A stretch of 6,777 bases of DNA, from IMG/VR virus record IMGVR_UViG_2526164595_000004, one strand, 5' to 3'. Shown here piece by piece: positions 2,956 to 6,777 of this stretch. The notes under the pieces were generated by a model. It was not told the DNA's origin. It did not search any database and was given only the letters and a program-made list of their open reading frames with translations. The DNA comes from a virus. Its lineage: Duplodnaviria; Heunggongvirae; Uroviricota; Caudoviricetes. The translations under genes were made by a program, and so were the position numbers. The stretch's first letter is position 1; every line of letters starts with the position of its first letter.

Positions 2956-3985
2956 TTATTTCACCTGTACCACCACAAACTCATCCGGATCCGGCAGCAC
3001 CATCAGCGGTGCGGACTGCGTCATGGTGAATTCACAGGACGGATCGCCCACAGTCAGCCAGTGTTTCGGGTAACGGGAAGAAGCCACCACACCTTCAGAC
3101 AACGCCTGTGCATCCTTAATGGCTCCATAGCAACGAATCCCCTCTGCTGCCGTATTCCCCAGCACCAGCGTGCCCTCCGGCAGATAACGTTTTTCGGTAC
3201 CGTCCTCTGCCACATAAGACGTTTTCGCTACCACAATGGCCAGATCACCGTAATACCCTTTGAAGGATACCACTGCGCCCAGGTCTTTCACTGCCGTTTC
3301 GAGTTGTGAATTTGAGCCGCGACGGGTATCCAGTTTTTCGCGGAACAGCTTAAAGCCATTCAGCAGACGCCAGACCGTACCGTCCATAATGGCAATATTC
3401 ACAAGACCGCTGGCCTGATCGCAGTAAAGGTCAATATCATGCGTCGGATCGAACGTGTCACGATCCTGCTCAGACCACTCCTTACCGCTACCTTGTATGA
3501 TGTTATTCTCCGTCAGAGCGGCCGAAATCCACCTCGACCGTGTCAAACTGTTCCCCTTCCATGGTGTATTTGCCATACAGCACGGCATTCACCGCCTGCA
3601 TTTCTTCCACCTGGACAATAGCGTGCTCTTCCTGTTTGAGGTTATCGGTGATGATACGCAGACGACGGTAGGCCGGGTCGTTCAGCTGAGCCGGATCTTC
3701 ACCGGGAAGGCGCTCAACCGCCTGCTGGTAATTAAATTCGTGTTTCGGCTTGACGTAGCCCGGACGCAACACGCGGGTTTCACCACCACGATGGCGCAGC
3801 ACTTTTCCTTCAACGATCGGGGAGACATAGGCCGCCACCGGCGTTTTTCCGGTAATTTTGTCCAGCATCACCTCTTCGGTGTGGAAATTCACCGTACGGC
3901 GGAAAAACAGCTCCAGAAATAGCGCACGGAATTTAACTTTTTGTTCGGTATAACCGAGTAACTGGCGGGTCGTAAACAATCCCAT
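2956..3985 (-). pseudogene. E: Major capsid protein gpE-like, reading frame interrupted by an apparent +1 insertion near 3510-3511 (pseudogene or sequencing indel)
   Basis: The N-terminal 160-aa ORF (3503..3985) and C-terminal 210-aa ORF (2956..3588) are in different frames but together are collinear with lambda gpE (341 aa). Examples: YVSPIV.G.V.R.RGG...PGYVKPKHE, AIVQVEEMQAV.AVL.GKYTM.GE.FD.VEVD.GRS in the first; ENNI.Q.G..EWS..D...DPT.DI, KLDTRRGSNS.LETAVKDLG, EFTM.QSAPLM in the second. Minus strand reads tct gac G gag aat aac at the junction. SD AAAGGAA upstream of ATG 3985. Confidence 0.85.
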
Positions 3986-4426: not shown

Positions 4427-5029
4427 TCATGGCATGGCCATGAGCATTTTCACGTCCGCATCACCGTCTTCTGACGTCTGTGACACGCCACCCCGCACCG
4501 CTGCCGGTGAATGATTCGCCATGAAATGTTCAAACAGGGCGGTTGTGGATGCAGAGACCGGTTCGGCCTTACCTGATCCCGCAGCCAGCACAGCCCGGGC
4601 GTTCTCCACGGTCATTCCCGGGCAGGCCGCCAGTTTTTCAGCCTGCGCTTCTGCCCCTTTTGCCTCATCCAGGGCCATGATCTGATCACGAAGTGAGGGC
4701 CCGGCATCCGCCAGTGGTGCAGCCGCCAGGATCGGGCGGGCTTTTTCCACCGTCATCTCCGGCATCGCCGCCAGCGTTGCTGCCAGTTGTTCACGACCGT
4801 TCGCTTCTTCACACGCCATAATGCGATCGGCTTCACTCTGCGCGGATGCCACCGGCTGCTGCGGTGCCGCCGCGGCCAGAATCGCCCGGGCCTGTTCAAC
4901 GCTCATGCCCTGTTGCCCTGCCAGCATCGTGGCAAGCTGTTCACGTCCTTTCGCTTCCTGGCATGTCAGGATCCCCATCACTCGCTGGTTCTCCTGCACG
5001 GCGGCTTCCGTTGCAGTTAATTGCGGCAT
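4427..5029 (-). CDS. Nu3: Nested in-frame scaffolding protein (Nu3-like) from an internal start within the 3' part of C
   Basis: Internal ATG (5029-5027) preceded by GAGGAGG (plus 5034-5040). Product of about 200 aa begins MPQLTATEAAVQENQRVMGILTCQEAKGREQ..., paralleling lambda Nu3 (...ENSRIMGILNCEEAHGREEQARVLAETPGMTVKTARRILAAAP). The nested C/Nu3 arrangement is established for lambda; the exact start here is inferred. Confidence 0.55.
   Translation of the reverse strand: MPQLTATEAAVQENQRVMGILTCQEAKGREQLATMLAGQQGMSVEQARAILAAAAPQQPVASAQSEADRIMACEEANGREQLAATLAAMPEMTVEKARPILAAAPLADAGPSLRDQIMALDEAKGAEAQAEKLAACPGMTVENARAVLAAGSGKAEPVSASTTALFEHFMANHSPAAVRGGVSQTSEDGDADVKMLMAMP
4577..4984 (-). repeat. 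Three tandem, diverged copies (about 140-160 nt, 36-41 aa) of the scaffold motif inside C/Nu3
   Basis: Protein repeats RVMGILTCQEAKGREQLATMLAGQQGMSVEQARAILAAAAP, RIMACEEANGREQLAATLAAMPEMTVEKARPILAAAP and QIMALDEAKGAEAQAEKLAACPGMTVENARAVLAAG. Matching DNA similarity is visible, e.g. ctgttcacgtcctttcgcttcctggcatgtcag versus ttgttcacgaccgttcgcttcttcacacgccat. Confidence 0.7.
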
Positions 5030-5920
5030 AGTGCCTCCTCTGACATTACTGTTCAGCGCCGTGGCCATCACACTGATGGCATCCGACGCATTGATTAATT
5101 CATCCGCCAGCCCGGCCTCAATGCCGGACTGACCTTCAAAAACGGCGGCCTCTGTTCCCGTGACTGCATCAACAGACAGACCGGTATACATCGCCACTTT
5201 TTCGGCAAACATCCGGTGCGCCGCATCAATCCGCTGCTGCATATCCTGGCGAACCTCTGCCGGCAACGCTTCAAACTGATTGCCATCCACCTTGTGCGCC
5301 CCGGCATAAATCAGCGTGATATCCACACCGGCCTGCGCCAGATGACCGGCATAGCTGACATGGCTCATCATCACGCCAATGGAGCCGATACGGGATGTCT
5401 GGGTAACCAGCCGTCGGGAGCAGGCCGACGCCAGCAGCATGGCTGCAGAACAGGCCGTGTCATTGCACAGTGCCCAGACCGGCTTCTGCTGCCGGAGGCG
5501 GTAAATCATGTCAGCGCAGTCAAACGCGCCGGCGGCCTGCCCGCCGGACTGTCAATGTCCAGCAGTATGCCCCGCACCTGGCTATCTGCCATTGCCTGCT
5601 GAAGACAGGCGACAATGCCGTCATAGCCAGTCATTCCGGAAAATGGCCGCATCCCCCCCAGCCGGTGCACCAGCGTGCCGGTCACCGGCAGTACCGCAAT
5701 ACCGTTCACCACCCGGTAAACACGGGCCGGTCGTTTACCTCCGGCCATGTACTCGTCCGTTTCAGCCAGCATTCCGGGAGCATCAAGCTGTACCTGCTGT
5801 TGCGGTACCGAAAGACTTGCTGCCCCCATCTCGCGCCCCAGCGCGCAAAAGAAAACCCGCGCATAGGCGGGCTCCAGAAGCAGCGGTTCATTGAATGCTG
5901 CTGCAATAATGTGTGAAAGA

Positions 5921-6777
5921 TTACGTCTCACGTGGTGTTGTCTCCTCTTCCGGCCTGCGACTCTCCGCTATCTGCTGCTGATACGCCTGCGCTATCCACA
6001 CCGGACGTGAGAGTCCGGCTTTTTCCCGCTCTGCAGATTCCCTGACCTGCTGGCGGAAAATGTCCTGATAATCCTCGCCCATCAGCGCCAGCTCTTTCTC
6101 ATACGTGCTCAGTCCGGCCTCAATGCGCATCACTGATTCCTGAACCTCCTTGAGCCCGTCAATGGCCATTCTTCCGGCTCCAATCCACTCAGCCCGTGAC
6201 CAGGCTGATCGCGCCTGATAAAAATCAAACCGTGCCCGTGGCGGACGAATAATCCCCCGAAGAAGTGCCTCTTCCAGCCAGCAGGAAAACATCTGCGTGG
6301 CCAGCCGGGACGCAATAAATTTTCGCCGCCCCATAAAATAGCGCCACGACTCATTGGCGGATGCGCGGGCACTTGAGTAACTGACCTTCGAGTAATCACG
6401 GGACAACTGTTCGTAGGAAACGCCAAGACCGGCGGCGATATACCGCAGCAGCGCCTGTTCAAGCGCCGAAAATCCATTGTCTGAATCCTGCGCGGTCTGA
6501 AGTTTCAGATCATCACCGGGGAAAAGGTGCGGAATTTTGACACCGCCCAGCGTCACGCTATTCGTGTCATACCAGGTGGAGAACTTATCCAGAATATTAA
6601 TAAGCGGATTATCCTTCTGCCCTCGCGGCGCACCGGCGATATATTCAAAGGACCTCTTCGGTATCAAGGTCACTTTCTAATCGTCGCTGCATACATCGCC
6701 TTCTACTATGGCCGACTGAAGCTGTGTTGCCTGCAGGGAATCCAGCATCTTCAGCCGTTCCATAACGCTGTAAAACT
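5921..6777 (-). pseudogene. B: Portal protein gpB-like, 3' portion (5' end off-window); frame broken by three clustered +1 indels and an in-frame TAG at 6677-6679
   Basis: Same-frame translation upstream of the TAG (FYSVMERLKMLDSLQATQLQSAIV) and the 250-aa ORF downstream (..GG.K.PHL.PGD.L.LQTAQD.DNG.S..EQ.LLRYIAAGLGVSYEQLSR.Y...SYS.ARASANESW.YFMGRRKF.ASR...QMF.CWLEEA...AGRMAIDGLKEVQE.VM.IEAGLSTYEKE) match lambda gpB. Between them the conserved KAMYAATI and ESDLDTEEV segments are only readable in the other two frames. Confidence 0.85.

Follow-up and report, generated by a model that had tools for sequence, protein, structure and literature searches.

The scaffold region of the 6,777-nt stretch of DNA analysed here, referred to as the window, raises the question of why a Nu3-like protein contains three copies of a motif that phage lambda carries once, and whether this arrangement is real, new and relevant to head assembly. 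A preliminary description of the window, made from its sequence, had recognised the three copies, had set them against a single unit in lambda, had suggested that the duplication could affect scaffold-capsid stoichiometry or binding, and had regarded the repeat as prone to assembly collapse or expansion. In the following, the identity of the gene, the history of the repeat and the possible role of the repeated unit are considered.

Locus and gene identity

According to the list of open reading frames (ORFs), the window carries lambdoid head and tail genes on the minus strand, and its closest intact relatives are E. coli prophages with an identity of 98.5 %. The RefSeq gene order in these relatives is portal, S49 family peptidase (501 aa), head decoration protein, major capsid protein, FI, head-tail joining protein, tail proteins and gpG. 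The lambda-like head order of portal, protease/scaffold, decoration and major capsid is found both in the ORFs of the window and in the RefSeq annotation of a collinear intact prophage (L004). A Peptidase S49 domain was identified in the 360 aa ORF (Pfam PF01343, 6.3e-36). The S49 protein of an intact relative also matches SppA-type models, with scores under their curated cut-offs.

The Nu3-like ORF is in frame with the C-like protease gene and lies inside the 3' end of the latter. Its start ATG is located at position 5029 and its N terminus reads MPQLTAT…, and a ribosome-binding site (RBS) is annotated in M81255 and OL657228 at the position equivalent to the GAGGAGG of the window. An internal in-frame start with its own predicted RBS is therefore present inside the 3' part of the protease gene. 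The preliminary assignment of the region to a Nu3-like scaffold nested in a C-like protease gene agrees with the ORFs, the PF01343 domain and the identity to phage 21 genes 5 and 6. The features of the locus are summarised in Table 1.

Table 1. Features of the protease/scaffold locus, in window positions unless a GenBank accession is given
Feature	Position	Strand	Details
C-like S49 prohead protease gene (homologous to phage 21 gene 5)	4427..5931	minus	present as two ORFs, 5506-5931 and 4427-5509
Nu3-like scaffold gene (phage 21 gene 6 homologue)	4427..5029	minus	200 aa + stop; from ORF and translation
Shine-Dalgarno sequence GAGGAGG	5035..5041	minus	read from sequence; 5 nt upstream of the Nu3-like ATG
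Unit 1 (Tri1)	4862..4993	minus	aa 13-56; 35-aa core aa 20-54 at 4868-4972
Unit 2 (Tri)	4715..4834	minus	aa 66-105; 35-aa core aa 70-104 at 4718-4822
Unit 3 (Tri3)	4574..4693	minus	aa 113-152; 35-aa core aa 117-151 at 4577-4681
M81255 Tri1 box	~4859-4962	minus	overlaps unit 1
M81255 Tri box	4712-4822	minus	corresponds to unit 2
M81255 Tri3 box	4568-4681	minus	corresponds to unit 3
C-terminal tail …TALFEHFMANHSP…DADVKMLMAMP	4430..4573	minus	conserved in 21-type proteins
Unit 2 deletion allele (L150), E. coli 98198	NZ_CP173570 914187-914732		break between two LAA repeats

Frameshifts in the window

Compared with the intact prophage L004, the window shows a 1-nt deletion in a run of C at about 5541-5544 (CGCCCGG to CGCCGG). 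It splits the C-like gene into ORFs of 141 aa and 360 aa, with the frameshift upstream of the catalytic domain. Therefore, the sequence as read does not allow a C-like product of about 500 aa to be made in the window. The preliminary estimate of such a length is correct for the intact homologues, in which the protein has 501 aa compared to 439 aa for lambda C, and fails only for the window with its broken frame. None of the 1873 E. coli genomes with the segment contains the deletion, the best match having 202 nt against 201 nt. Either the gene is truly a pseudogene, or the frameshift is an error of sequencing.

Relative to the intact prophages, a 1-nt insertion at 3515 splits the major capsid gene into the ORFs 2956-3588 and 3503-3985 on the minus strand. 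This insertion was found in none of the approximately 1870 complete E. coli genomes with the segment. The stretch from 3250 to 3750 is the most divergent part of the window, with at most 96 % identity to any complete E. coli genome. In the portal gene, single-base insertions at 6652, 6678 and 6704 lie within about 50 nt, and their net effect of +3 restores the frame after a short scrambled stretch. The FI region (2559-2925) shows several compensating indels compared to L004. Taken together, the indels of the window reflect either a decaying prophage head module or errors in the source sequence. No such damage is seen in the Nu3-like ORF with its three units, where a single base separates the window from the best intact relative.

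The three units and their earlier annotation

Three tandem units of about 35-40 aa are found in the translation of 4427-5509 (minus strand), namely ENQRVMGILTCQEAKGREQLATMLAGQQGMSVEQARAILAAAAP for unit 1, EADRIMACEEANGREQLAATLAAMPEMTVEKARPILAAAP for unit 2 and LRDQIMALDEAKGAEAQAEKLAACPGMTVENARAVLAAGS for unit 3. All unit cores fall within the interval 4577-5029 to which the motif had originally been assigned. The units share 54-63 % of their residues, and their pairwise BLOSUM62 local scores of 81-103 compare with 23-24 ± 4.6-4.8 for 2000 composition-preserving shuffles. This corresponds to z values of 12-17, with the observed score reached by 0 of the 2000 shuffles. The presence of three tandem copies was thus confirmed by the translation and the shuffle test, and the internal similarity of the scaffold region proved significant at the protein level when the units were aligned to each other.

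The feature itself has been described before. Over the full 1505 nt, the C/Nu3 region of the window is 96.9 % identical to phage 21 at the nucleotide level (megablast), the gene being 97 % identical to genes 5/6, and the scaffold proteins share 94.5 % identity. The nested start with its RBS, the three units at equal positions and the flanking genes are all shared between the two. The differences are limited to a few substitutions and the 1-nt deletion at about 5544, which is private to the protease frame of the window. GenBank M81255.1, the record of the phage 21 head operon from the 1990s, contains gene 5 with 1506 nt and the nested gene 6 with 603 nt and its own RBS. Gene 6 carries three repeat_region features labelled 'Tri1 box', 'Tri box' and 'Tri3 box', which the record describes as 'function unknown; putative'. 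These boxes were mapped to the window by the constant offset between locus and window. The original paper on the phage 21 head genes was reportedly published by Smith and Feiss in Gene in 1993. Phage 21 gp5/gp6 have also been named head-tail preconnector, and in the complete phage 21 genome from 2022 (OL657228.1) the products are called 'capsid protease/scaffolding protein' and 'scaffolding protein' (PMC9119081).

Since the feature table of M81255 marks the Tri1, Tri and Tri3 boxes, the triplication was already known. Novelty of the feature is not supported, as the boxes have been on record since the early 1990s and 1870 of the 5426 complete E. coli genomes carry the gene. The triplication is real but ordinary, and a known feature of phage-21-type head genes.

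Comparison with lambda

Lambda C/Nu3 resembles the window in its S49 protease with a nested scaffold and in its gene order. The motif string that had been given for lambda in the preliminary description, …SRIMGILNCEEAHGREEQARVLAETPGMTVKTARRILAAAP, occurs once in lambda C (NC_001416), and the profile hidden Markov model (HMM) of the unit detects exactly one unit in lambda C/Nu3. The assumption that lambda Nu3 has a single unit rather than three equivalent copies was therefore correct, based on both the NC_001416 sequence and the unit HMM. The lambda unit is identical to unit 1 of the window at 26 of 42 positions. Unit 1 is also its positional counterpart, and the lead-in RVMGIL.C.EA is common to both. 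Besides having one unit instead of three, lambda differs in about 36 additional linker residues before the unit and in the length of C. That the C-like protein is longer than lambda C is the net result of two added units minus this lambda linker of about 36 aa upstream of its unit, which makes up for part of the difference.

The C-terminal tail of lambda (TALDRLMQGAP…NDLLNTPV) scores 16.2 bits with a profile of the 21-type tails, a value reached by 0 of 1000 shuffles, for which the maximum was 9.8 bits. Judging from this profile match, the lambda and 21-type C-terminal tails are homologous. The two proteins therefore have a common plan of linker, n units and tail, with n = 1 in lambda and n = 3 in the window. 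A MAFFT alignment had presented the lambda segment 'ALDRLMQGA' as a candidate for a vestigial second unit. This was rejected because the segment fits the profile of the 21-type tails and its match to unit 2 is not significant (z 1.3).

The annotated start sites of the two scaffold genes differ. In RefSeq, lambda nu3 (NC_001416; L003 833-1438) starts at MDATRQ and encodes 201 aa. The start of phage 21 gene 6 aligns with the later MTKETQ of lambda, which would give a protein of about 130 aa. MTKETQ is reportedly the experimentally determined N terminus of Nu3. Due to this mismatch, the annotations of lambda nu3 and phage 21 gene 6 are not equivalent.

The unit as a widespread protein module

A profile of 40 positions built from 19 units was searched against 1.84 billion representative proteins, and 1075 clusters (50 % identity) contained the unit at E-values up to 0.001. 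Among the best 150 of these clusters, 130 have one unit, 15 have two, and five have three or more. As the ranking favours multi-copy proteins, a single copy is clearly the norm. Typical carriers are 430-560 aa long and combine a Peptidase_S49 domain with a unit close to the C terminus, and they include GC-rich sequences far from enterobacteria. Across the clusters, the unit is the conserved C-terminal element of S49 protease/scaffold proteins. Three representative proteins (P0129, P0133 and P0141) consist of lambda C fused to parts of terminase, of tail protein L or of the tape measure protein, and have the appearance of lambda vector sequences that are chimeric or rearranged, or of artefacts of gene calling.

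A stand-alone protein of 195 aa with two Tri-type units and without a protease domain was found at positions 6001-6588 of the Logan sequence SRR25568644_270 (1-12588; L149). This small integrase-bearing element encodes small-terminase-like and tape-measure-like proteins, an unannotated protein of 297 aa and a tail gene in the neighbourhood, and an S49 gene was not found within the 12.6 kb examined. The element may be a satellite or a small prophage that uses the Tri scaffold module.

The searches of Pfam and NCBIfam returned no model for the unit, and the corresponding PHROGs families are described as 'head maturation protease' and 'head scaffolding protein'. A sequence search of the PDB with the protein and the unit profile gave chance matches only, namely the Lac repressor, haemoglobin and a 24-residue chain of the Toxoplasma mitoribosome entry 9HQV. 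Foldseek against the PDB, for which a first model of modest quality was used, yielded nothing significant, with no match below an E-value of 2.8. Against BFVD, it only returned other S49 prohead proteases, including S49 proteins of cyanophage and uncultured siphoviruses, with E-values of 0.3-1.9 over about 59 residues.

Predicted architecture and possible function

In an AlphaFold2 model based on an alignment of 26 sequences, each unit forms three short helices, which for unit 1 span aa 6-21, 30-37 and 44-53, and the conserved EAKGRE segment sits around the first loop of the unit. For the tail, helices are predicted at aa 160-172 and 191-197. The model is of moderate confidence, with pLDDT values of 75-83 in the units and below 65 in the linkers and a pTM of 0.27. 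This low pTM indicates that there is no fixed arrangement between the units. A single-sequence model gave a helix-loop-helix for each unit. The protein is thus predicted to consist of a short linker, three small helical bundles on flexible Pro/Ala/Gln-rich linkers, and the tail.

Information on the function comes from lambda. The genes C and Nu3 overlap in frame (Shaw & Murialdo 1980, as cited in PMC8508860), and gpC acts as the protease of the prohead (Medina et al. 2010, as cited in PMC8508860). Nu3 is a scaffold that is degraded before packaging, and a two-hybrid study detected Nu3-Nu3, Nu3-C and Nu3-E interactions (PMC3224144). According to the earlier work cited there, C-Nu3, Nu3-Nu3 and Nu3-B interactions had been reported previously (PMC3224144).

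Through the nested genes, the protease and the scaffold would receive the same units and tail. The units could serve as repeated docking surfaces for the major capsid protein or for other scaffold or protease chains. Such docking would bring scaffold and protease together within the prohead ahead of their degradation by the protease, and three flexibly linked units would form a multivalent binder with a valency above the single unit of lambda. Docking is the simplest reading because the units and the tail are common to protease and scaffold and the unit is the one strongly conserved element of the shared part across the family. By analogy with the C-terminal coat-binding modules of other scaffolds, the major capsid protein would be slightly preferred as the partner of the unit. 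The C-terminal helix-turn-helix of P22 gp8 is comparable as a small helical module in a scaffold, and is proposed here as a functional analogy only. It differs in being present in one copy and in the lack of a fused or nested protease, and neither the PDB sequence search nor Foldseek revealed a sequence or fold match to this P22-type coat-binding helix-turn-helix. A possible, though not probable, reading is that the Tri unit is an uncharacterised interaction domain that binds the major capsid protein, its copy number of one to four tuning the number of capsid subunits recruited per chain. The genomes of lambda (48.5 kb) and phage 21 (42.9 kb) are similar in size and both phages build T=7 heads. 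As these heads are built with one and three units, respectively, the valency has no obvious structural read-out.

Alternatively, the units might be self-association modules that build the core through scaffold-scaffold and scaffold-protease contacts, with copy number tuning the cross-linking of the core and the capsid being contacted by the tail only. The C-terminal tail, rather than the units, could be the capsid-binding element: it is separately conserved in lambda-type and 21-type proteins, and in other phages the coat is usually bound by the extreme C terminus of the scaffold (P22 literature). The Nu3-Nu3 and Nu3-C interactions of lambda are also consistent with self-association (PMC3224144). 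However, the Nu3-E interaction has been reported by the same study, and the AlphaFold model shows no confident packing between units within one chain (pTM 0.27). The present results are compatible with self-association as well as with capsid binding, and the former is likewise regarded as possible rather than probable.

It is very unlikely that the unit is a helix-hairpin-helix-like (HhH) nucleic-acid-binding motif through which the scaffold or protease contacts DNA. A visual similarity exists between LAxxPGMTVEQAxxIL and LPGIGxxxAxxIL, and weak Foldseek matches to the HhH regions of RecR and RuvA were obtained with probabilities of about 0.1-0.25. However, all of these matches have E-values of 4-10 and are not significant, no Pfam HhH model matches, and the units are roughly charge-neutral. 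Furthermore, the proheads in which scaffolds act are free of DNA, and the scaffolds are removed prior to packaging.

The repeat at the DNA level and its age

The repeat is detectable at the protein level only. Tandem Repeats Finder reported no period of 141-150 nt in the DNA of the window, and a DNA repeat search of the window gave just imperfect matches of 12-25 nt. DNA identity between the units amounts to 59-68 %, and exact matches extend over no more than 8 nt between units and 9 nt anywhere in the gene. Codon positions 1 and 2 are 69-83 % identical between units compared to 34-40 % for position 3, and the same codon is used at just 9 of the 19-22 conserved residues per unit pair. This low identity at third positions and high identity at first and second positions fits old copies under protein-level constraint.

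The same codon pattern, which points to selection on the protein, speaks against a role of the repeat as DNA, for example as regulatory sites such as CII binding sites. This idea is suggested by OL657228, in which matches to TTGYN6TTGY are marked as 'CII binding site' in the gene, corresponding to 4777-4790 and 5011-5024 on the plus strand of the window. However, two matches compare with 1.2 expected, at least two occur in 70 of 200 shuffles, and the candidate sites do not recur once per unit. The number of matches is therefore at chance level, and a DNA-level function is highly improbable.

The age of the triplication can be estimated from homologues in other genera. Gifsy-1 and other gpC homologues of Salmonella, Trabulsiella and Providencia have three units in the same order, and differ from the window by an overall identity of about 56-71 % and by other linkers and tails. 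In the Salmonella and Trabulsiella homologues, each unit has its best match in the unit at the corresponding position of the window. For unit 1, the identity to unit 1 of Salmonella and Trabulsiella is 81 %, unit 2 is 79 % identical to unit 2 of Salmonella, and unit 3 is 66-68 % identical to unit 3 of Trabulsiella and Salmonella. Neighbouring units within one protein are 58-61 % identical in the same comparison. Since each unit is nearest to its positional counterpart in other genera, the triplication predates the divergence of these enterobacterial phage lineages. These identities and the codon pattern mean that the triplication is old and that purifying selection acts on every copy.

Prevalence, copy-number variants and assembly risk

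The 603-nt scaffold gene is present in about one third of the complete E. coli genomes, including Nissle 1917 and O157:H7, O103, O145 and O121 carriers. At least 80 % of the gene is covered in 1865 of the 1870 carriers, and in the sampled rows nearly all copies have exactly 603 nt in one piece. Three units were found in all 80 of the 80 closest IMG/VR viral contigs. About 20 phage records, including Gifsy-1, contain a 21-type gene, and about 80 further records match over just one unit-length stretch, which fits the single unit of lambda.

Among the GTDB species representatives, 49 loci have one unit and four loci, from E. coli, Shigella flexneri, Trabulsiella guamensis and Providencia alcalifaciens, have three, many of the single-unit loci being lambda contamination. 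Lambda-type C genes were observed on short, low-coverage contigs (L015-L023, L036, L038, L039, L043 and others) of assemblies labelled as Kitasatospora, Neobacillus, Oceanobacillus, Leeuwenhoekiella, Akkermansia (MAG), Pseudomonas, Shewanella and others. Most of these genes are 54 % identical to the query, like the lambda-like matches from E. coli and Shigella. They are almost certainly due to contamination with lambda DNA.

Rare variants in copy number were also found. The general homologous-protein search gave mostly fragments and is suited to spotting such variants, not to estimating their frequencies. In E. coli 98198 and CT282, an in-frame deletion of 57 nt removes 19 aa (LAATLAAMPEMTVEKARPI) of unit 2. 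In three protein clusters (P0013, P0019 and P0022), unit 2 is fully or partly missing or fused with unit 1. In every deletion allele seen, unit 2 is the one affected, being lost completely, shortened or joined to unit 1. A four-unit variant from E. coli (P0030) belongs to the same protease/scaffold family and carries the same unit. It differs from the window in its number of units and in that its units 2-4 are mutually 82-88 % identical, which indicates a separate and younger amplification.

The expectation that the repeat is prone to assembly collapse or expansion was not confirmed. An assembler would meet no long DNA repeat that it could collapse, as the units share 59-68 % DNA identity and at most 8 nt of exact match, and the full 603 nt in nearly all finished genomes and the three units in all 80 IMG/VR relatives also contradict an instability of the repeat. 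For the same reasons, it is exceedingly unlikely that the three copies arose by a recent duplication, or that they are an artefact of assembly or sequencing which hides a different true copy number: the private single-base indels elsewhere in the window do point to an imperfect sequence quality or integrity, and rare relatives with two and four units exist, but the scaffold region is one base off an intact prophage, and the positional orthology across genera indicates an old triplication, so that this explanation is effectively refuted.

As a whole, the locus is best explained as the scaffold gene of a phage-21-type lambdoid prophage, nested in the protease gene, with the three copies corresponding to the annotated Tri boxes and stemming from an old triplication under purifying selection. 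We assign this explanation a probability of about 0.9.

Significance

For genome scanning, the finding is of minor importance, as it concerns a textbook lambdoid head gene whose triplication was recorded three decades ago. A modest residual value lies in the unit itself. Within a large family of phage protease/scaffold proteins, it is the single conserved element of the scaffold part, and it has neither a curated family model nor a solved structure. If the Tri unit does bind the major capsid protein and its copy number tunes recruitment, phage 21 and lambda would represent a natural valency experiment. The natural alleles with one, two, three and four units provide a ready series for relating scaffold valency to prohead assembly.
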